The notes beneath the pieces were generated by a model. That model saw only the letters and a list, made by a program, of their open reading frames with translations. It was not told the origin of the DNA and made no database searches. From Dehalococcoidales bacterium (GTDB lineage Bacteria > Chloroflexota > Dehalococcoidia > Dehalococcoidales > Fen-1064): DNA of 60,323 nt. Shown one piece after another: positions 45,248 through 60,231 of the stretch (position 1 is the stretch's first letter; each line of letters opens with the position of its first letter). The position numbers and the translations under genes were made by a program. The stretch spans positions 1 through 60,323 of the forward strand of contig JAURWL010000256.1 in NCBI GenBank assembly GCA_030654965.1, in the 5' to 3' direction.

Positions 45248-46807
45248 ATGAACGAAAATATCGTCGAAACAACTGCGGGTCAAGTTTGTGGTTACCTGGA
45301 ACGAGAAGTTTATGCATTCAAAGGCGTCCCATATGGCGCGCCGACTGGTGGCAACCAACGTTTTTTACCACCAAAACCGGTTGCACCGTGGGCGGGGATA
45401 AGATACGCGGGCGAATATGGACCCATCTGCCCGCAAACAGGGTCATTGGTTGATGAATCAAGACCTTTCTCAATCGCCCGTACGGAGGGACACACCAGAC
45501 TCCTGCCACAGAGTGAGAATTGTTTGGTACTGAATGTCTGGACGCCGGCCGTAGGCGATGGTGGAAAACGTCCGGTTCTGGTATGGCTACACGGTCGTGG
45601 TTTTACGGCGGGAGCGGGCTCAGAAACCCAGTATATCGGCGCCGCACTGGCAAAACGAGGTAATACAGTCGTGGTGACAATTAATCACAGACTCAATATA
45701 TTCGGTCATCTATATCTGGCGGATATTGCAGGTAAAGAATATGCTGCTTCGGGTATAACCGGCTCACTGGATATGATACTGGCACTGCAGTGGGTACATG
45801 ATAACATCGACGCATTTGGCGGGGATAAAAGCCGGGTGACCATTTTCGGTGAATCAGGCGGTGGCTGCAAGGTCTGCACAATGCTGGCTATGCCTGCGGC
45901 GAAAGGTTTGTTCCACCGCGCTGTTATTCAGAGCGGTTCAATGGGAACCTGGGCTGTAGAACCCAAGTCAGCCACAGCCATAGCAGAACGTCTATTGGCA
46001 GAGTTAGGTATCAAAACCAATCAGATTGATAAACTCCAGCAATTACCAGCTCAGCAATTGTTGGATGCTTTGAGTGCCATCACTTCAAGGAGGTCCAGTC
46101 TGGGTTTGGGCGCCCCGGGTGGTGTCGCCATGCAGTTAGCCCCGGTTGTAGATGGTCACTACTTGCCTCAGCATCCCTTCGACCCGGTAGCGGCGCCATC
46201 AGGAGCGGATGTGCCGTTGATAGTCGGTTGCAACCGGGATGAAAATGCCACTTTTATGGCGGCTGACCCACGGCGTCGCCGACTTGGAGAGGCAGAATTA
46301 CACGAGCGCCTGCTACCTGCACTCGGCGCGAAAACGGATGAAATAATAAATGTGTATAAAAGCACCAGACCTGACGCCACTCCCTGGGACATTTTTATCG
46401 GGATTACCAGTGAGCGGGAACGGCGCACGGTAATACAGCTTGCAGAACGGAAAGCGGCTGGTGGGCGCGCTCCGGTGTTTGTGTATTTATTCACCTATCA
46501 GTCCAATTTCCTCGGTGGTCTTTTCAAGGCAGGTCACGGTCTCGAAATCCCATTTGTGTTCGATATTACCGACGATGTGCCCTGGACCGGCGACCGACCG
46601 GACAGGTACGAGTTATCTTCGGCGATGAGTCAAGCATGGGCAGCATTCGCACGCATTGGTGACCCCAGTCACCCGGGGATTCCTAAATGGGAACCTTTTA
46701 CTGCCAATTACCGTGCGACGATGCTTTTCGACGTTCCTTCGAAGCTGGTGGTTGACCCATTCCGCAAAGAGCTGGATGCCTGGAAAGGCATACCGATTCG
46801 GAGTTAA
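45248..46807 (+). CDS. Type B carboxylesterase
   Basis: FKGVPYG, SENCLVLNVW, FGESGG nucleophile motif, NRDE, AGHGLE. Confidence 0.92.
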   Translation: MNENIVETTAGQVCGYLEREVYAFKGVPYGAPTGGNQRFLPPKPVAPWAGIRYAGEYGPICPQTGSLVDESRPFSIARTEGHTRLLPQSENCLVLNVWTPAVGDGGKRPVLVWLHGRGFTAGAGSETQYIGAALAKRGNTVVVTINHRLNIFGHLYLADIAGKEYAASGITGSLDMILALQWVHDNIDAFGGDKSRVTIFGESGGGCKVCTMLAMPAAKGLFHRAVIQSGSMGTWAVEPKSATAIAERLLAELGIKTNQIDKLQQLPAQQLLDALSAITSRRSSLGLGAPGGVAMQLAPVVDGHYLPQHPFDPVAAPSGADVPLIVGCNRDENATFMAADPRRRRLGEAELHERLLPALGAKTDEIINVYKSTRPDATPWDIFIGITSERERRTVIQLAERKAAGGRAPVFVYLFTYQSNFLGGLFKAGHGLEIPFVFDITDDVPWTGDRPDRYELSSAMSQAWAAFARIGDPSHPGIPKWEPFTANYRATMLFDVPSKLVVDPFRKELDAWKGIPIRS

Positions 46808-46883
46808 TGTTTTGCCAGTACCAGCAAAATAAACTGTAATAATTACCGGACTGAAAGAAAAAATTATATAGAGAGGATAAAGA

Positions 46884-48440
46884 ATGAAAGAGATTATTGT
46901 CGAGACTACTGCGGGGAATATTTGTGGCGTAGAAGAACGGAATGTTCTGGCATTCAAAGGCGTCCCATATGGCGCGCCGACTGGTGGCAACCAACGTTTT
47001 TTACCACCAAAACCGGTTGCACCGTGGGCAGGTGTGCGTTATGCTGGCGACTTTGGTCCAATCTGTCCGCAGACAGGGCACCTGGTTGACGAATCACGGC
47101 TTTACTCATACGTGCGTACAGAAGGGCATATCAGATTCTTACCCCAGAGTGAAAACTGCCTGGTGCTGAATGTCTGGACGCCGGCTGTGGGCGATGGCGG
47201 CAAGCGCCCGGTGTTTGTCTGGCTTCACGGTCGCGGTTTTGCCCAGGGCGCCGGTTCGGAGACCCAGTATCACGGCGCCAGGCTTGCCAAACGCGGTAAC
47301 GCAGTCGTAATTACCATCAATCACCGGTTGAATGTTTTTGGCTTCCTGCATCTGACGGATATTGCCGGTGAGGCGTTTGCCGGTTCCGGCATGGCAGGTA
47401 TGCTGGATGCCGTGCTGGCTCTTCAGTGGGTACACGATAATATCGAGGCATTTGGTGGGGATAAAAACCGCGTGACCATCTTCGGAGAATCCGGCGGCGG
47501 CGCGAAAGTCAGTACGTTGCTCGCCACACCTTCGGCAAAAGGACTATTTCACAGAGCGGCGATTCAGAGCGGCGCGGGATTGCGTGGTGTAGAACCAAAA
47601 GAAGGCTCGGATACAGCCGAGCGCCTTTTAGCCGTGCTGGGTATTAAAAAGAACGAAATCAATAAACTTCAGCAGTTACCGGCGCAAGAACTGCTTGATG
47701 CCCTAAACAAAATACCGGGGCGACCTGTTACACCCGGCAGCGGCTTACCAACAGGCGCTATTATGCGGTTTACCCCGGTGGTAGATGGTAAATATCTGCC
47801 CACTCATATGTTCGACCCCGTAGCCGCACCGCCAGGATTGGATGTTCCAGTTATCGTCGGCACCAACCGGGACGAATCGGCGACTTTCCTTGCCAATGAC
47901 CCGAAACGCCGCAGACTTTCGGAGACAGAACTGCGCCAGCGATTGATACCCTTGTGCGGCGATAGGGTAGACAGCATAATTAGTGTATACAAAAAATCAA
48001 GACCGGAAGCTACTCCATGGGACCTGTTAATCGGCATCCAGAGTGAAGGAATGAGGCGGTCAGCTGTCACTCTCGCGGAGCGTAAGGCGGCGGCTGGTGG
48101 TGCCCCGGTCTATATGTATTTAGTCACCTATCAGTCTGATTTCCTCGGCGGATTGTTCAAAGCAGGACACGGCATCGAGATAGCTTATATATTCGATGTT
48201 GCCGATGATGTGCCTTACGTTGGCAACCGCCCCGATAAAAACGAGTTTGCCGCGGCGATGAGCGAGGCATGGCTGGCTTTTGGGCGTACCGGTAATCCGA
48301 GTCATCCAAGGATCCCGAAATGGGAACCCTACGATGTAAAAAAACGTGCCACCATGCTCTTCGATGTTCCATCCCGACTGGTAAACGACCCATTCCGCGT
48401 GGAGCTTGATGCCTGGAAAGGTATGGAGATACGCCGTTAA
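46884..48440 (+). CDS. Type B carboxylesterase (tandem paralog)
   Basis: Same motifs, colinear with 45248..46807. Confidence 0.92.
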   Translation: MKEIIVETTAGNICGVEERNVLAFKGVPYGAPTGGNQRFLPPKPVAPWAGVRYAGDFGPICPQTGHLVDESRLYSYVRTEGHIRFLPQSENCLVLNVWTPAVGDGGKRPVFVWLHGRGFAQGAGSETQYHGARLAKRGNAVVITINHRLNVFGFLHLTDIAGEAFAGSGMAGMLDAVLALQWVHDNIEAFGGDKNRVTIFGESGGGAKVSTLLATPSAKGLFHRAAIQSGAGLRGVEPKEGSDTAERLLAVLGIKKNEINKLQQLPAQELLDALNKIPGRPVTPGSGLPTGAIMRFTPVVDGKYLPTHMFDPVAAPPGLDVPVIVGTNRDESATFLANDPKRRRLSETELRQRLIPLCGDRVDSIISVYKKSRPEATPWDLLIGIQSEGMRRSAVTLAERKAAAGGAPVYMYLVTYQSDFLGGLFKAGHGIEIAYIFDVADDVPYVGNRPDKNEFAAAMSEAWLAFGRTGNPSHPRIPKWEPYDVKKRATMLFDVPSRLVNDPFRVELDAWKGMEIRR

Positions 48441-50801: not shown

Positions 50802-51206
50802 TTAGTTTTTTATTGATATGCCCCTCGATTTCAACACTTCTTTAACTATGGCTCTAAGCTCCTCTGGCGCAAATGGTTTTAGCAAGAACAATCGCCCCGT
50901 TTCTTTCAAAAAACTTTGGGTTTCTCCGCCAATCACATCTCCAGTAGTGAGAATCACCCCATTTACCAGCTCAGGATGTCTATCATTAATATATTGAAAT
51001 ATTTCCTTCCCATTTATCACTGGTGTCTTAATGTCAATCAGGCAAAGGTCATAATTGTTCCTATCTAACATTTCCTCGGCTGTCCGCCCATCTATGGCAA
51101 TGCTTACCTCTAACCCCTCACCCATAAGTACCCTGACACAGAGACTGCTTATTGATGGTTCATCCTCAACTACAAGAATCCTCTTTTTATCAGCAGAGTC
51201 TGTCAT
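50802..51206 (-). CDS. Single-domain response regulator (CheY-like receiver)
   Basis: ILVVEDE, DLCLIDIKTP (phospho-Asp), TTG, FLLKPF; ATG 51206 after AGAGGA. Confidence 0.88.
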   Translation of the reverse strand: MTDSADKKRILVVEDEPSISSLCVRVLMGEGLEVSIAIDGRTAEEMLDRNNYDLCLIDIKTPVINGKEIFQYINDRHPELVNGVILTTGDVIGGETQSFLKETGRLFLLKPFAPEELRAIVKEVLKSRGISIKN

Positions 51207-51364
51207 TATATTCCTCTTCTCCAATTTCCAACGGTAGATTTCCGCGATGAATGTAGCACCTTTAACAGGTTCGAAAAATATCACTCGAAGGGCTATCAAA
51301 TGACGCGTTTCTCAATTTCCTCAAAAAGTACTCTCCCGCTCCAACTATTTCAACTCAAGTCGTA

Positions 51365-52006
51365 TTATCTCTCGACTATTTGTCCAGTCATCGCTTTCTC
51401 TACTTGTGTTCTGCTCTTCTCTGCCGCGTTATCTGCAGAACCGGAAGATGAGGCAGGTTGGACAGCGCTATTCTTGCCAAAAACAACCTCCAGTAAGAAG
51501 ATAATAAAACCCATCCCTATCAAGACATCGCCTGCGCTGTAAACGCCACCCAGATGACTCGCCGGAATGATGTCTGTCAAGAACCACAGATTTGTCTGGT
51601 CGATGGGCAACAGAACTCCGCTGCCCTCAGGTAATACCATTCCAAATTGAGATGGACCAAGGAATGTCATGTCGGCTAGCTGTCTCGCTTCCGGTGACAC
51701 CGGCATTAGTCCGCTATTCGCCGCTATTGCGATAAAGTTGAGCAGAGTTCCCAGTGTCATTATACGTAGGCTCCGAAAATTAAAATTACGAGATAGCGCC
51801 CAGAGTAAGAGCACGTAAGATAAAATCATACAAGCTCTTTTAACATCCACGAGCGATTCCCGCGCGAAAATCGCAAACGGCAACCGGTGTATGAGAGCAC
51901 TCAGCAGGATAAGCCACCAGTATCTAACTCTTACTGCTGTAATGTTCGCAATCGACTTTGCGAATACTTTCCGGCAAACGGACAGTACCTTCTTTGTTGG
52001 TTGCAT
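51365..52006 (-). CDS. DUF5317-like membrane protein
   Basis: LNFIAIAANSGLMPV, LWFLTDII and YSAGDVLI motifs; several TM segments; start position uncertain. Confidence 0.75.
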   Translation of the reverse strand: MQPTKKVLSVCRKVFAKSIANITAVRVRYWWLILLSALIHRLPFAIFARESLVDVKRACMILSYVLLLWALSRNFNFRSLRIMTLGTLLNFIAIAANSGLMPVSPEARQLADMTFLGPSQFGMVLPEGSGVLLPIDQTNLWFLTDIIPASHLGGVYSAGDVLIGMGFIIFLLEVVFGKNSAVQPASSSGSADNAAEKSRTQVEKAMTGQIVER

Positions 52007-52039
52007 TTCTACTTCTCTCTCATCAGGTAGTTGAAGAAA

Positions 52040-52093
52040 GACTGTAGCCCCGAGCATCAGACTATAGGAAAGAAATCGCTCGGGGTTTTAGTC
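52040..52093 (-). other. Intercistronic stem-loop (leaky terminator or stabiliser)
   Basis: CCCCGAGC/GCTCGGGG stem with outer GACT/AGTC pair, followed by TTTCTTC on the minus strand. Confidence 0.55.
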
Positions 52094-52106
52094 CTTCTCT
52101 GACAGG

Positions 52107-52226
52107 TTATGGGTTGAAGGCGGCCGGCGCTCCTCCGGCTACAGCTATGGCGACTGCGATAGCCACAAGTAACAAGATTTTCACCAATGGCAAATACCGA
52201 GACAGAGTAACAAATTGTTTTCGCAT
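52107..52226 (-). CDS. 39-aa signal-peptide-like small protein, putative signalling precursor (absent from the ORF track)
   Basis: MRKQFVTLSRYLPLVKILLLVAIAVAIAVAGGAPAAFNP*; purine-rich SD region TAAGGAAAGGAAAGGGG; own promoter elements upstream. Confidence 0.75.
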   Translation of the reverse strand: MRKQFVTLSRYLPLVKILLLVAIAVAIAVAGGAPAAFNP

Positions 52227-52280
52227 GTTGAAACCCCTTTCCTTTCCTTATTTAGAACATAAAAATATTCTATTGTTCTA

Positions 52281-52327
52281 ATAATAAAGGGTAGGCTCTT
52301 ACCAACCTCTTACCAAGCTCTTACCAA
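52281..52327 (-). promoter_or_regulatory. Three TTGGTAAGAG direct repeats (11-bp period) plus -10 box
   Basis: CTCTTACCAA at 52296, 52307 and 52318 on the + strand; TATTAT 9 nt downstream on the minus strand. Confidence 0.8.
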
Positions 52328-52350
52328 GCATGGATAATGATAGATTTGGA

Positions 52351-52385
52351 TAAATAAAACGGGACTCACTGAAGAGTGAGTCCCG
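52351..52385 (-). terminator. Intrinsic terminator of the large regulator gene
   Basis: CGGGACTCACT/AGTGAGTCCCG stem followed by TTTTATTTA on the minus strand. Confidence 0.85.
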
Positions 52386-52410
52386 CTGAAATACGGATTC
52401 CAGTTGTCTG

Positions 52411-55400
52411 TTAGTTCTGAATGTAGCTTGAAGTCCGACCAGCTACAATAAGCTGGTAAAGCTTCTGAATTTCGTGCGATGATTCGGACTTGCTTTCATT
52501 TGTGGCCAATTCCACATATTGCTTGTACGTGCGCAGCGCCAGCGACCTGTTTTGTTCCGCCAGGTGACAGCGTATCATGCGACAATAAGCATCCTCTGCA
52601 TAGGGGTCTATCGCAACATATTTTTCAAGCAATGTTACAGCCCGACCGTAGTTACCTTGGCTCGCATAGCAGTCAGCCAACAAAGATAAGGCTCTCAAGT
52701 ACTTGTTTTCAAGCTCACGGCGCCGTACCTCAATCCATTCGCTGTAGAGTTCGCCCAGAAATGTTCCGCCGTAGAGCTCTAAAGCCCGCTCGAGAACTGA
52801 CGCACGGTCAGTCATATGGGTGGGCATTGCTTCTGCTGCTGTTAATAAATTTTCGAATTCCGCCACATCATACCAGATACGGAGGTTCGGATTAATTTTG
52901 TAGCGTCCGTCTTCGAATGCGAATATGCCTGGGTATAACGCCCGACGTGCCCGGAAAATATTGATGTGGAAGTTACTGGTCCCTTTGGCTAAAGACAGGT
53001 CGGGCCATAGCGCCGCAATAATCTGCTCTTTCGTTTGCCCGTTATGGTGCGTGAGCAGATAGAAGAATATTTCTTTGGCTCTATTGGAGCGCCAATCGGC
53101 ATCGCTCACCCGACGGCTATTTATCATCACTTGAGTATGTTTTAAAGCCCTGGCTTCAATACCTGGTTTCGTTGGTACGTCCAAACCGTTTGCAACACCG
53201 GCAATAAGTCCTGCCGATTTCCTTTCCTTGATAGTCTCAATCTTTTCCAGAATCCTGAGGAAACGAGCACCCCCTATCCCTTTTTCGGCTCCGTACTGAA
53301 TAAGCGGAATTGCGTTCCGTCCCTCTGTTGCCAGAAAGTCTTCATAACCCAGTTCATCTGCCAGGCTGGAAGCTTTTTCGAGCCACTCCACGGCACGGAC
53401 ATATTTACGTGATAGAAACGATGCTTGCGCAATATGGAAATAAGCCTTCGCCAGGGCATCTCTGTCGCCCATGGTCTTCAGGCGTCGGCTGGCATCATTG
53501 AGAACCGCTTCTGCTTTCTCGAATTGACCTCGTTCATACTCGATTATCCCGAGCGGAATGGTAAAAAGCGCAGCTTCATACGGCTGTTCCTGCTCTTCCG
53601 CCTGGTGTTGAGCTTCTTTCAGCAATATCTCTGCTTTCTCACTCTCGCCTTGAAATCGATGGGTCTCGCCTATACCGGCTGTGGCATACGCTACCAAAGA
53701 AGCCTCCATTATCTGTCTGGCTAGTTCCAAACCCTCCTGATATGCCGTCATAGCCTCTTGATACAGACCCAAGTCCCGAAGCAAGTCAGCCATGGATATA
53801 AGAATCACAGCTTCAATGCGGCGGTATCCGGTTTCTCTGGCTTTTTCTAAACCGGAACGAAAGGTATCCAGCGCCAGGTCGTACTGCCCCATGCGCTGGT
53901 AAATGAGACCGATGTTGTTTAGAGCCGAGGCTAGTACCCCGAAGTTTTTAGTTTTCAGCCAGCCGGTTCTTGCTTTTTCGAAGTGCATTTTTGCTTTAGC
54001 AAGTTGTCCCAGTCGCATGTAAGTGATACCAAGCGAGTTGTGCACCAGCGCAATATCATTGACATTAAGAACTGAAGAATAGTATCTCAGAGCACGTTGA
54101 AGGTGTCTCAAGGCTGAGGGAAAACGTCCCTGTTCGGCATGAATGTCACCCAGCCTTCTATGCGCATCACCAAGCAAGTCTGCGGGACATTGATGCTGTT
54201 CCAGCAGGCGAATCGCTGTACCGATGTCGGCGCGGGCTTCCCGGAAGTAGCCATTCAGGCGGAAGGCGGCGCTACGCCAGCTCAATGCCTTTGCCTTTAT
54301 CAGCCAGTCTTTCTCATCAGGAAACCCACCGATTAGCTTTGTCAAAATATGTACAGCTTCATCAACCCGACCGATGTAGGTCAGTGTCTGAGCATCAAGT
54401 ATCACTATTTCTGGGTCGGATGCTCGCAATGCATCGGGCAACATATCAAGCCATTTAGAGATAGTTGTCCATTTACCTGACTTAAAGAAATCCGCCCCAA
54501 CTATCTTTATGACCCTCACAGCCTCATCGTATTTTCTTGCGGTGGCGTAGTGCTTTACAGCCTCATTCCACCGTTGATTATGTTCATAGAGTGAGCCAGC
54601 CATAGCGTGTAGATTAATAAATTGGGCAGGGTCGTCTTCGAGCAGTTTTGTTTGTAGAAAATCTTTGAAAATCTGGTGATAGCGGTACCATTTCTTTCGC
54701 TCATCGATACATTGCATGAAAAGGTTCTGCTGGTCAAGAAGTCGGAGTATTTTACGGGAGTTGATGGACGGCAGCAGTTGGTCGCATATCTCCGGGCTCA
54801 GGTCGTCTAGCGTGCTGGATGCCAAGAGAAAACTCTGTATCGCAGGTGGTTGTTTATCATAGACTTCTGACGTCAGGTAGCGAGAGACGTCTTCCTGAGA
54901 TATGGCTGGCATTTGTACAGCCAACTTACCTTCACGCAGGCTATGTACACCAGACAGCACGCCGATTATCCAGCCTCCGGTGTGTTGAGTCAATTTATCC
55001 GCTTCCTGAATAGACAGGTCAATACCGTAGTGCGCAGCTATAAGGTCCTTCGTCTCACCAGATGTAAGAGAAAGCTGTGACACCGTTATAATCGCGGCAG
55101 GATTCTGTAACACCGTTTTAGAAATTACTGGCAGTTCCACCTGAGTACGACTCGAAATGATAACATGGCAATTGTCCGGAGTTCGTTCTAAAAAGAGGTT
55201 TAGTAAAAGCCTTGCTGGTTCACTATTTTGAAGAAAATGATAGTCATCCAGAACGAGCACAAAGAAATCCGCAATGTCAGAACTGATTTCAGCCGCCAAC
55301 GTATTGAGTAATTGCGTGGCGTCCTTTGTCAGGTCAGTCGTGCTAAGCAAGCGTGAGTTCGTCTGATATCCGAAATTTGGAAAGCGTGAGCAAATTGAAG

Positions 55401-55656
55401 CCAGAATTCCCTCTAACAGCACCCTGGGGTCCTCATCTGTGGCATCAATAGTGTACCAACAAATAGGCGCACCAAGGTCTTGCGCGAAATTTGTCAGCAA
55501 TGTTGTCTTGCCATAGCCAGTGGGTGCCGATAGCACCTGAATGCGTGTTTGAACATTGTCGTGCAGGATGTCAATCAACCGTTCACGACGGATAATTTTA
55601 TTCCCTCTTCGAGGGACGAGCAGTTTGGGGTTGAATATAGCAGTACCGATACTCAT
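52411..55656 (-). CDS. MalT-like STAND NTPase + TPR array + C-terminal wHTH/BTAD (SARP-type) transcriptional activator
   Basis: APTGYGKTT, LVLDDYH, TGGWIIG, YRYHQIFKDFL; TPRs such as ALNNIGLIYQRMGQYDLAL; EQIIAALWP; ALELYGGTFL...EW...DPYAE. Confidence 0.88.
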   Translation of the reverse strand: MSIGTAIFNPKLLVPRRGNKIIRRERLIDILHDNVQTRIQVLSAPTGYGKTTLLTNFAQDLGAPICWYTIDATDEDPRVLLEGILASICSRFPNFGYQTNSRLLSTTDLTKDATQLLNTLAAEISSDIADFFVLVLDDYHFLQNSEPARLLLNLFLERTPDNCHVIISSRTQVELPVISKTVLQNPAAIITVSQLSLTSGETKDLIAAHYGIDLSIQEADKLTQHTGGWIIGVLSGVHSLREGKLAVQMPAISQEDVSRYLTSEVYDKQPPAIQSFLLASSTLDDLSPEICDQLLPSINSRKILRLLDQQNLFMQCIDERKKWYRYHQIFKDFLQTKLLEDDPAQFINLHAMAGSLYEHNQRWNEAVKHYATARKYDEAVRVIKIVGADFFKSGKWTTISKWLDMLPDALRASDPEIVILDAQTLTYIGRVDEAVHILTKLIGGFPDEKDWLIKAKALSWRSAAFRLNGYFREARADIGTAIRLLEQHQCPADLLGDAHRRLGDIHAEQGRFPSALRHLQRALRYYSSVLNVNDIALVHNSLGITYMRLGQLAKAKMHFEKARTGWLKTKNFGVLASALNNIGLIYQRMGQYDLALDTFRSGLEKARETGYRRIEAVILISMADLLRDLGLYQEAMTAYQEGLELARQIMEASLVAYATAGIGETHRFQGESEKAEILLKEAQHQAEEQEQPYEAALFTIPLGIIEYERGQFEKAEAVLNDASRRLKTMGDRDALAKAYFHIAQASFLSRKYVRAVEWLEKASSLADELGYEDFLATEGRNAIPLIQYGAEKGIGGARFLRILEKIETIKERKSAGLIAGVANGLDVPTKPGIEARALKHTQVMINSRRVSDADWRSNRAKEIFFYLLTHHNGQTKEQIIAALWPDLSLAKGTSNFHINIFRARRALYPGIFAFEDGRYKINPNLRIWYDVAEFENLLTAAEAMPTHMTDRASVLERALELYGGTFLGELYSEWIEVRRRELENKYLRALSLLADCYASQGNYGRAVTLLEKYVAIDPYAEDAYCRMIRCHLAEQNRSLALRTYKQYVELATNESKSESSHEIQKLYQLIVAGRTSSYIQN

Positions 55657-57619: not shown

Positions 57620-59059
57620 TTACAGATAATCCTTGAGCTTACGGCTCCGGCTTGGGTGCCGCATTTTTCGGAGTGCTTTGGCTTCAATTTGCCTGATGCG
57701 TTCACGGGTGACGTGGAACTCCAGCCCCACTTCTTCCAGCGTCCGACTTCTCCCGTCCTCCAACCCAAACCTGAGTTGCAATACTCTCTGTTCCCTTGGC
57801 GTCAAGGTCGATAGCACCTCTCTAATCTGGTCTTTGAGTAATTGCCTGGAAGCGCCATCTAAAGGTTGTATTGCATTGCGGTCCTCTATGAAATCACCTA
57901 GATAACTGTCCGCTTCCTCACCCATGGGCAATTCCAACGAAATGGGTAGCTGGGCTACTTTAATGACCTCACGCACCTTCTCCGGTGAAAGCCCCAACTG
58001 TTGACCGATTTCTATAGCGGTCGGGTCGCGGCCATACTCCTGTGTAAGTTTGCGGCTTACTCTTAATAGCTTATTGATACTCTCGATCATGTGGACGGGG
58101 ACGCGAATGGTGCGCGCCTGGTCAGCGATAGAGCGGGTAATTGCCTGCCGTATCCACCAGGTGGCATAGGTAGAAAACTTAAAACCCTTGTGCGGATTAA
58201 ACTTCTCTACGGCACGTATGAGACCGATGTTACCCTCCTGAATCAGGTCGAGCAGAGACATTCCGTGTCCGATGCTCTTCTTGGCGACACTGACGACAAG
58301 CCGTAAATTAGCTTCGGCAAGGTGGTCTCTAGCGATTTTTTCCTCTCTCTGGAGGCGTTCAAGGTATTCACGCAGGTAGGCCTCATGCGCCTCAAGTTTC
58401 TCAATGAACTCCCCTTCCATCACCAGATTGGGAATACTTGCCAGCGAAGCCTTGCGACCAATGGCTGTCAGGACTTTTTCCGGAAGCAGTGCGCTGTCTA
58501 CTGAAAGGGCAATCAGCCGGGACTCAATCGGTTGCGCAGACAGTTTAAGCTTATCGGCGATGCGTTGCACCATGAGCTGGTCAATCACTCCATCGATAGC
58601 AGCTCTGAATTTCTCATCGGTAATGGTCTGATGGAAACTGGTATTTTCCGGCAAACCAACATTCTCCTGAAGTTTATGGATAATCTCCCACGATAGCCCA
58701 AGCTCCCTTATTATTTCCTGGAAAACATGGCTGGCAGTGGCTTGCTTGCCCTGTGTTTCAAGCCCCCGTTTGACTGAGGAAACACGCTTCCCAATCTCAA
58801 TCCGGCGCGCGGTAGTTTTCTCATCGCGTGCTGTGAGAAGCGGTACCCGCCCGATTTCATGGAGGTAAAGATGTGTAGGGTCATCGTTCGCCTCCTGGTC
58901 GTCAGCGTCGAGAACCGCCAGTGCTGGTTCTTCGGGTTCGAGGTCTTCTGCAGCCGGCTCTATTTCCAGCACAATCTTTTCTTCGGGATTTGTTTTTGGA
59001 TCTTTTATTGCATCAAGCTGTAACTTTTTTGATGTTGCTGTCATTGCATCAAGTGCCAT
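57620..59059 (-). CDS. RpoD-like sigma-70 factor
   Basis: [61 protein letters not shown]. Confidence 0.93.
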
Positions 59060-59885: not shown

Positions 59886-60154
59886 TAGATGACCTCCTCT
59901 CCTGAATAGTTGGTAAGAGTTCGATCACCCAATACTTGAAATGAATCTTTAGTGCGGAAAATTGAGAAGAAGATGCAGGAAAAGTACTAATGACCCTAAC
60001 TTGAACCAATAATTTATTGTACGCTGAATCAGTTGTCAATGTCAAATTCTGGGGTTGTGAAGAGCTTCCGGTAAAAAAGACAACATGATTACCAAGCCGC
60101 AGGAGAAATCGAGGCTAATTGAGCGGTAATGAAATCACCATAAAACTACCTTTA

Positions 60155-60231
60155 TGGTGGGCCATTGTGGATTCGAACCACAGACCCCAGTCTTATCAGG
60201 ACTGTGCTCTAACCAACTGAGCTAATGGCCC
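60155..60231 (-). tRNA. tRNA-Ile(GAT)
   Basis: GGGCCATTAGCTCAGTTGGTTAGAGC...CAGTC-CTGATAA-GACTG...GGTTCGAATCC...TGGCCCACCA; encoded CCA. Confidence 0.96.

Follow-up and report, generated by a model that had tools for sequence, protein, structure and literature searches.

In pho-box promoters, direct repeats with an 11-bp period replace the -35 element beside a normal -10, and winged-helix protomers bind them head to tail. MalT binds direct-repeat arrays as an inducer- and ATP-dependent oligomer. In RRNPP cassettes (Rap/Phr, PlcR/PapR, NprR/NprX, Rgg/SHP, AimR/AimP), the gene for a TPR receptor is paired with a small peptide gene, and the receptor (~250-500 aa) carries an N-terminal helix-turn-helix (HTH) or phosphatase domain. 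In the accessible part of PMC10936776, SARP promoters are described as having direct repeats spaced by 11 or 22 bp, with 8 bp between the -10 and the 3' repeat. The same part places the afs box at -40 to -19, with each AfsR protomer touching the first 8 bp of an 11-bp repeat, and describes a side-by-side AfsR dimer as a docking surface for sigma region 4 that replaces a poor -35 and also contacts beta, beta' and the alpha C-terminal domain (alpha-CTD) (PMC10936776). Arrays of three repeats are given for DnrI, ActII-ORF4, VlmI, FdmR1 and PimR in the available text of PMC10972967, where the described SARP classes (small, medium, large, SARP-LAL) have the SARP domain N-terminal and SARPs are 'exclusively found in actinobacteria'. 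Here we analyse a triple direct repeat in a 60,323-nucleotide stretch of Dehalococcoidales DNA (contig JAURWL010000256.1, assembly GCA_030654965.1; hereafter the window), located between the gene for a 1081-aa STAND/TPR regulator and a 39-aa peptide gene. The three repeats are very probably the binding array of the C-terminal SARP module of that regulator.

The original prediction, made from the sequence of the window, had described three identical 10-mers about one helical turn apart, ending 9 nt before TATTAT and without a consensus -35. A pattern search recovered exactly this arrangement. Three exact copies of TTGGTAAGAG are present on the minus strand (52327-52318, 52316-52307 and 52305-52296), separated by single bases (C, then G) to give an 11-bp period. 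Read on that strand, the order is TTGGTAAGAG-C-TTGGTAAGAG-G-TTGGTAAGAG-CCTACCCTT-TATTAT. Tandem Repeats Finder reported the same segment (52295-52329; period 11; 3.2 copies) with a score of 63, the top of 19 rows in the window. Lone 10-mers are common, with 6 matches in the window at ≤1 mismatch and a shuffle mean of 3.34; it is the tandem layout, not the 10-mer itself, that is exceptional. The genome scan for the tandem 10-mer proposed with the prediction returned four loci only: at ≤2 mismatches, the two-repeat pattern was found at the window locus and in three other promoters of the 1.85-Mb assembly. The reversed-pattern control gave 0 matches at ≤2 mismatches and 1 at ≤3. Two stray copies in the window, an exact but isolated one without a partner repeat (59910-59919, plus strand) and one with 1 mismatch inside what appears by eye to be a tRNA gene (60207-60216), were taken as chance.

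The claimed lack of a -35 also held. A sigma-70 scan of the minus strand from 51900 to 52500 found no -35/-10 pair, and at 17 nt before TATTAT the sequence reads GAGGTT, a hexamer that agrees with the -35 consensus at 1/6 positions. TTGGTA within the proximal repeat agrees at 4/6 but is just 13 nt from the -10. Instead, the proximal repeat (52296..52305) overlaps the expected place of the -35 and of the -35/-10 spacer. Transcription is predicted to start near 52274. If TATTAT occupies -12..-7, the conserved 10-mers end 3' at -33 and -22, which are the ends of the AfsR-contacted segments, with a register of +/-0-2 bp. A 7-bp inverted repeat, TAGAACA-N14-TGTTCTA (52253-52280, minus strand), starts right after the -10 and extends over the putative start of transcription; a second operator and a hairpin at the 5' end are both conceivable roles. 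By eye, the orthologous promoters have other short inverted repeats at the same spot.

The regulator encoded next to the repeats is MalT-like at its N-terminus (NCBIfam MalT, E 2.9e-64, residues 10-424), and this protein also matches AAA_16/AAA_22 in Pfam. Because its 217.5 bits are far under the 537-bit equivalog cut-off, we class it as MalT-like, yet not as a MalT orthologue. A TPR sensor region follows at ~465-830 (TPR_MalT PF17874, E 4.5e-20), and the C-terminus is a SARP module (~residues 835-1075 of 1081, encoded by 52414-53220). No GerE/LuxR match was found in the regulator. Pfam BTAD covers residues 930-1070 (E 8.6e-19), and the NCBIfam BagI/FevR SARP model matches residues 875-1077 (E 3.7e-4), far under its cut-off. 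Against the PDB, a five-orthologue profile of the last 269 residues matched AfsR chains (E 3.8e-10, 206 positions). An AlphaFold2 model of the same 269 residues, built from a 37-sequence alignment (pLDDT 93.1, pTM 0.87), contains a strand, three helices and a hairpin in the order of an OmpR-type winged helix, with an all-helical domain behind them.

Structure comparison of this model with Foldseek placed AfsR SARP domains (8hvr_I, 8k60) and EmbR (2ff4, 2fez) in the six best PDB matches. These span TM 0.72-0.82, with the AfsR matches at 0.76-0.82 over ~250 columns (for 8hvr_I, E 2.7e-10, TM 0.77/0.81, 250 columns); matches below the top six are generic TPR proteins with E > 1e-3. In the model, an OmpR-type winged helix thus stands directly before the BTAD domain, the arrangement that defines the SARP fold. 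The C-terminal winged-helix-BTAD fragment assumed in the original prediction is borne out by the BTAD match, the AfsR profile match, the AlphaFold2 model and the AfsR/EmbR structure matches together. The order of MalT-like STAND ATPase, TPRs and C-terminal SARP is the reverse of every described SARP class, and the regulator is a new architectural variant in which a MalT-type switch is joined to a C-terminal SARP module. A literature search, with subscription journals outside its coverage, found no paper on C-terminal-SARP STAND proteins in Chloroflexota. The regulator is single-copy in the assembly, where the only other BTAD match is weak.

To place the repeats in a comparative context, we used 24 family genomes and a broader scan that took one genome for each species and yielded 73 loci; as loci and genomes (numbered L and G) are sequence-related, the counts overstate independence. 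Family orthologues of the regulator are present in G007, G023, G019, G011 and G005 at 41-63% identity, the G005 gene being cut by a contig end. At all four orthologous loci with assembled downstream DNA (L010, L011, L012, L014), YTGGTAAGAG-N-TTGGTAAGAR was found within ~100 nt of the regulator stop, and the repeat pair was followed by nine bases, TAnnAT and a 34-39-aa open reading frame (ORF). The same order of repeat pair, spacer, -10 and peptide gene recurs at L028, L030, L033, L035, L036, L039 and L049, with a more degenerate version at L029. Altogether, the box (≤2 mismatches) was detected in 7 of the 24 family genomes and its reversed control in 0/24. It is present in 5/6 genomes with an orthologue, the sixth being G005, and in 2/18 without one (G018 and G022). 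G018 is 65% complete, and its site is orthologous to L003, the response-regulator promoter of the window genome. At the G022 site there are two mismatches, and a -10 is missing. Both this site and C4:14541 were dropped, the grounds for rejection being either the absence of the spacer/-10 architecture or a position within an ordinary -35/-10 promoter.

The 73 loci extend over Dehalococcoidales, Dehalococcoidia, Anaerolineae, Chloroflexia, Ktedonobacteraceae, some Bacillales and actinomycetes, and 60 of them have both a C-terminal SARP module and ≥150 nt of downstream DNA. A tandem repeat (≥8 of 9 positions, period 10-12) within 300 nt of the regulator stop was detected at 32/60, where mononucleotide shuffles expect 4.5. 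Requiring in addition TAnnnT at 16-21 nt, counted from where the last repeat starts, left 26/60 (shuffle expectation 0.5). This crude detector overlooked degenerate repeats visible by eye at L029, L036, L039, L042/L044 and L054.

Behind distant regulators, repeats stand at the same place but with other sequences: TTTGTAAGGC at L040, three copies of TTTGTAAGCA at L043, GTGGCAACGG at L047/L048, TTTTGTACCC at L052, L053, L058 and L063, TTTTCGAGA at L055, and TTTTGTAAC behind the Lysinibacillus and Viridibacillus regulators. Pairing each box with the recognition helix of its regulator gave TTGGTAAGAG/SNFHINLYRARRA, TTTGTAAGCA/SAFHVTLYRVRRA or ASFHVALYRLRRA, TTTTGTACCC/QRFKAYIFRLRRA, GTGGCAACGG/SSLRSTLFRLRRA and TTTTCGAGA/SALYDAVFRLRRC, with the helix SNFHINLYRARRA common to all TTGGTAAGAG loci. 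As far as the aligned sequences indicate, the repeat changes together with the recognition helix. L032 (genome G024) encodes a TTGGTAAGAG-type helix and has no box behind its regulator gene; a box foretold from that helix was found on another G024 contig, where it is followed after 9 nt by TATTAT and then by a gene for a 44-aa peptide. Reading the repeats as the operator of the neighbouring regulator thus agrees with position, co-occurrence and co-variation. This reading needs revision in several respects: the conserved unit is a pair of repeats and not a triplet, the regulator is no classical SARP, and the 10-mer ends 9 nt before the -10 instead of the quoted 8 bp. As a separate observation, two copies of TTTTGTAAC, a 9-nt gap and a -10 stand behind the regulator gene in Lysinibacillus and Viridibacillus (L069, L074, L088); the gene after them encodes a lipoprotein-like protein, whose signal peptide ends in cysteine, rather than a small peptide.

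Fourteen other family sites have two repeats each, preceded by a T-rich stretch, and the window site alone has three. The distal copy is missing from the orthologous promoters L010, L011, L012 and L014. We regard it as a lineage-specific addition because the other family sites have two repeats and G019, from the same genus, is without a third. Three-copy arrays also occur in the Anaerolineae relatives L043 and L046. The window promoter is the sole site in its genome at which every copy matches the consensus, which fits a primary, high-affinity target. A 9-nt spacer and TAnnAT are present at 13/15 family box sites. When the spacers of these 15 sites were compared, most read GTCATCnTT; L049 (CCTGTTTCC) and the window peptide promoter depart from it.

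The repeats had also been proposed to define a regulon motif, and three further promoters of the window genome, each with two repeats and the same 9-nt distance to the -10, support this. Regulon counts were taken from IUPAC pattern searches. A stricter pattern including the -10 matched 4 sites in the window genome at 0-1 mismatch and none at 2; at 3 mismatches there were 8 sites, one of them a shifted self-match, versus 3 control matches. The box is thus predicted to mark a small regulon of four promoters in this 1.85-Mb Dehalococcoidales metagenome-assembled genome. No box was found upstream of the regulator gene in a search of the window for autoregulation. In other genomes, boxes precede further peptide genes, a GT2 gene (G025), a gene for an SRPBCC protein (G019), and SIS and GHMP-kinase genes (G011). 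A 229-244-aa protein family is encoded directly behind the box in G025, and its G028 homologue lies downstream of a box-driven peptide gene. Three G011 sites (L018, L024, L027) are identical over ~24 nt upstream and 15 nt downstream and were counted as one event; in this genome the whole promoter has been copied before heptose-pathway-like genes (SIS, GHMP kinase). In G023, a second, unlinked box (L026, contig C61) precedes a gene for a paralogous 34-aa peptide, MERSLSCILVPAIAVAILISAAVPVWAGPYITGS, in addition to the regulator-linked peptide.

From geometry and homology, we infer that the regulator binds the box, that it activates rather than represses, where transcription starts, and what its ATPase and TPR region contribute. 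One winged-helix module would occupy each 10-mer. Because the period is 11 bp, neighbouring protomers would line up along a single face of the DNA helix, the proximal one at the -35 position, 9 nt from the -10. As the promoter has a good -10 (TATTAT) but no -35, it would stay inactive unless the regulator brings in RNA polymerase as AfsR does, with a SARP dimer in the -35's stead docking sigma region 4 and touching beta, beta' and alpha. The background to this proposal, that SARP promoters carry 11-bp repeats shortly upstream of the -10, had been stated in the original prediction and agrees with the consulted portion of PMC10936776. The MalT-like ATPase and TPR region may gate loading through ligand- and ATP-dependent oligomerisation, which would suit an array of two or three sites, and an extra protomer on the third copy (-53..-44) could reach the alpha-CTD. 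The output would be the 39-aa peptide gene and then, past a hairpin, the DUF5317 protein and a receiver-only response regulator. Elsewhere in the genome, two-repeat versions of the box would drive three promoters: one for a response regulator, one for two GT2 glycosyltransferases and one for a pair of secreted proteins.

SARP and OmpR winged helices recognise the same sort of 11-bp direct repeats, and the array could instead be a pho-box-like site of an OmpR/PhoB-family response regulator, with the STAND-SARP neighbour a bystander or co-regulator. The response regulator PhoP also binds the AfsR box of afsS, according to the available part of PMC10972967, and two regulon members are response-regulator genes. 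Yet the box trails the STAND-SARP gene in Dehalococcoidia, Anaerolineae and Chloroflexia, and similarly in Bacillales, and varies with the recognition helix. It tracks this gene within the family (5/6 genomes vs 2/18), the G024 box prediction held, and no response-regulator gene is consistently linked to it. These links argue against an OmpR-type reader as the main explanation, which we consider unlikely, although such a regulator may compete with the STAND-SARP protein. It is less likely still that the adjacent regulator represses or roadblocks from the box while transcription comes from a different, unrecognised promoter. At 13/15 sites the -10 stands at a fixed 9 nt without a -35, which is the signature of an activator-dependent promoter, and the same sigma-70 scan found no other sigma-70-like promoter on the minus strand. 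In the solved SARP complex, as far as the accessible text goes, the same geometry supports activation (PMC10936776). Such repression would draw on the overlap of the box with the core promoter, where a bound protein can occlude RNA polymerase, and on the 7-bp inverted repeat below the -10 (52280-52274 / 52259-52253), which could be a separate operator. Finally, replication slippage could have produced the triple repeat as a neutral feature without any part in regulation; only this genome has the third copy, and the identity of all three copies would be expected if 11 bp had been duplicated recently. Against this, the core of two repeats keeps its sequence, spacing and position down to 41% regulator identity and recurs at unlinked promoters, which contradicts slippage for the pair and makes it a highly improbable account of the array.

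Binding by the adjacent SARP module is the reading we prefer, and several observations weigh against it. Shared descent alone is also expected to produce co-variation of box and helix. G005 (95% complete) has the regulator and no box elsewhere, and the box at G007:C136:40059, upstream of the G007 orthologue (-10 TAGGAT), is without a convincing downstream gene. The window spacer, CCTACCCTT, departs from the GTCATCnTT of most of its sister sites. Pfam Trans_reg_C gave no match on the regulator at the E 0.01 level, so that the winged helix is assigned from the fold model and from an AfsR profile match starting only at profile position 55. The -10 and the transcription start are sequence-based predictions. 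In addition, the assembly encodes five OmpR-family regulators (229-238 aa), which read the same kind of repeat.

The features of the locus and the predicted regulon promoters are collected below. On the minus strand, the order is regulator gene, terminator, repeats, -10, ribosome-binding site with the 39-aa ORF, hairpin, DUF5317 gene and response regulator gene.

Table. Features of the repeat-array locus in the window and predicted regulon promoters on other contigs of the same assembly. Positions in parentheses are relative to the predicted transcription start, with the -10 placed at -12..-7.
Feature	Position	Strand	Remarks
1081-aa regulator gene	52411..55656	-	Pfam, NCBIfam, PDB profile, AlphaFold2/Foldseek
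Intrinsic-terminator-like hairpin	52358..52387	-	13 pairs, T-rich tail; between regulator gene and repeats
Direct repeat 1 (distal), TTGGTAAGAG	52318..52327	-	(~-53..-44); only in this genome's version of the promoter
Direct repeat 2, TTGGTAAGAG	52307..52316	-	(~-42..-33); upstream half of conserved pair
Direct repeat 3 (proximal), TTGGTAAGAG	52296..52305	-	(~-31..-22); downstream half of conserved pair
9-nt spacer, CCTACCCTT	52287..52295	-	Proximal repeat to -10; length conserved
-10 hexamer TATTAT (predicted)	52281..52286	-	Without -35 partner
Purine-rich ribosome-binding site of 39-aa peptide gene	52234-52249	-	
39-aa peptide gene, MRKQFVTLSRYLPLVKILLLVAIAVAIAVAGGAPAAFNP	52107..52226	-	Basic N-terminus, hydrophobic core, short conserved tail
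Strong RNA hairpin	52034..52099	-	Gap between peptide and DUF5317 genes; -28.8 kcal/mol, z -4.46, 0/200 shuffles fold as well
DUF5317 membrane protein gene	51365..52006	-	Pfam PF17248, E 3.4e-25
Receiver-only response regulator gene	50802..51299	-	Last of presumed operon; Pfam Response_reg, E 1.9e-17
Regulon promoter C121			-10 TACGAT; receiver-domain gene
Regulon promoter C22			-10 TACAAT; two GT2 glycosyltransferase genes
Regulon promoter C110			-10 TATCAT; 144-aa protein with signal-like N-terminus and 246-aa protein without Pfam match

The terminator-like hairpin would end the regulator transcript, and the peptide gene therefore needs its own promoter. The hairpin behind the peptide gene is possibly a partial terminator or processing site. 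Arranged in this way, the peptide gene resembles a small gene with high expression and a leaky terminator behind it, and hairpins 3' of the peptide stop were also seen by eye in L010, L012 and L014. The DUF5317 gene, whose likely start is ATG 52006 (the longest ORF begins at 52057), also follows the peptide gene in G011 and G019. DUF5317 has 993 relatives at E ≤ 1e-3 and is present in 4/151 searched genomes of the order. Its invariant residues (213-aa form) are G86, N90, M101, P102, D145, S157, G159 and D160; the two aspartates among them are spaced by 15 residues and belong to an S-x-G-D context. The DUF5317 model is confident (pLDDT 90.2); Foldseek found no PDB match at E ≤ 0.001, and VIA-align wide returned generic helical bundles only (best Z 8.9, 87 residues aligned). 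The idea that DUF5317 is a peptide-processing intramembrane aspartyl protease came from these aspartates and the S-x-G-D context and was set aside as a bare lead, there being no specific structural match. A literature search, again with subscription journals outside its coverage, found no papers naming 'DUF5317'. Elsewhere in the window are tandem carboxylesterase paralogues of 519 and 518 aa (45248-48440, plus strand; Pfam COesterase, E 3e-99 and 1e-95) and a 479-aa sigma-70-family factor with regions 1.2, 2, 3 and 4 (57620-59059, minus strand).

The 17 aligned peptide precursors all have a basic N-terminus; a hydrophobic stretch of 15-20 residues follows, which closes with small residues and gives way to a 7-15-aa tail (e.g. 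AGGAPxxFxP, AGPDGxGP and GAPxxWGGxGP). Most of their genes have a strong GGAGG-type ribosome-binding site. In sequence, the precursor looks like an export signal joined to a 7-15-aa product, although a membrane-anchored micro-protein fits its shape equally well. Peptide uptake is conceivable because the genome encodes six family-5 solute-binding proteins of the Opp/Dpp type. By analogy, regulator and peptide might form an autoinduction circuit for peptide-based cell-cell signalling in Chloroflexota, a speculative reading that we hold to be rather doubtful. The 34-47-aa precursor would leave the cell and be cleaved behind the hydrophobic core. Its tail (GGAPAAFNP here; GPDGFGP or GPYIGNP in relatives) would be re-imported to bind the TPR sensor of the STAND protein, and oligomerisation driven by ligand and ATP would load the C-terminal SARP modules onto the repeats. 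The peptide's own promoter would then be switched on together with surface glycosylation, protease and response-regulator genes, and the third repeat would add cooperativity and sharpen the switch. A complex prediction for regulator residues 400-860 with the 39-aa peptide (score 0.02, mark 0.32) gave no answer either way. In the ESM Atlas, the peptide matched unnamed clusters only (0.87-0.88, below lead level). Among distant loci, L052 (5350-5560) and L063 (5340-5600), from Anaerolineaceae and Chloroflexia, encode behind two copies of TTTTGTACCC a peptide with repeated P-x-DGCG-x-x-RR-x units, four in L052 and six in L063; single-unit versions occur in L053, L058 and L061. The sequences of the L052 and L063 peptides look like those of multi-core precursors.

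These data provide a concrete candidate motif, made up of two or three TTGGTAAGAG units, 9 nt and a -10, for the regulon of a regulator family that is uncharacterised and widespread in Dehalococcoidia and other Chloroflexota. The hosts are mostly uncultured, and their transcriptional control is nearly undescribed. We class the box, from its sequence and geometry, as a new member of the SARP direct-repeat class in a phylum without described SARPs. SARP promoter recognition, in which a repeat array takes the place of the -35, would thus reach beyond actinobacteria, and its module could be fused behind a MalT-type switch. The natural pairs of box and recognition helix, from ~60 loci, form a data set for the DNA-reading code of the SARP winged helix. 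Should the peptide prove to be the ligand, Chloroflexota would have a new class of peptide signalling, the first to be proposed there.

The locus shares with PhoB/OmpR pho-box promoters the 11-bp direct repeats in place of a -35, but the neighbouring regulator is without a receiver domain, and its link to the box is positional and phylogenetic. Like an RRNPP cassette of Firmicutes, it has the gene for a cytoplasmic TPR regulator directly before a small gene whose product consists of an apparent export signal and a short tail, and the presumed site of the regulator before the peptide gene would give positive feedback. Unlike RRNPP receptors, the 1081-aa protein is 3-4x larger, carries a STAND ATPase and uses a SARP module in place of an XRE-type HTH; the host phylum, Chloroflexota, also differs. 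The N-terminal STAND ATPase, the MalT-type TPR region and the layout with the sensor N-terminal and the DNA-binding domain C-terminal are those of MalT and LAL regulators, whereas the C-terminal domain is a SARP module instead of a LuxR-type HTH.

A further comparison is with AfsR and other SARPs. The SARP module is C-terminal here and its ATPase MalT-like, while that of SARPs is NB-ARC-like. The regulator family belongs to Chloroflexota, with relatives in Bacillales, and it is predicted to act on a small peptide operon and on genes for the cell surface rather than on an antibiotic cluster. The 10-mer has a T(G/T)GTAA core, in contrast to the CGTT(T/C)ATCGNN given for AfsR in the available text of PMC10972967, and its end lies 9 nt from the -10, compared with the '8 bp' rule quoted for heptamers. 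In common with AfsR and SARPs are the winged-helix and BTAD fold, the STAND ATPase and TPRs that large SARPs also have, the arrays of two or three repeats, and the 11-bp-period repeats over the -35 region with the proximal repeat at a short, fixed distance from the -10.

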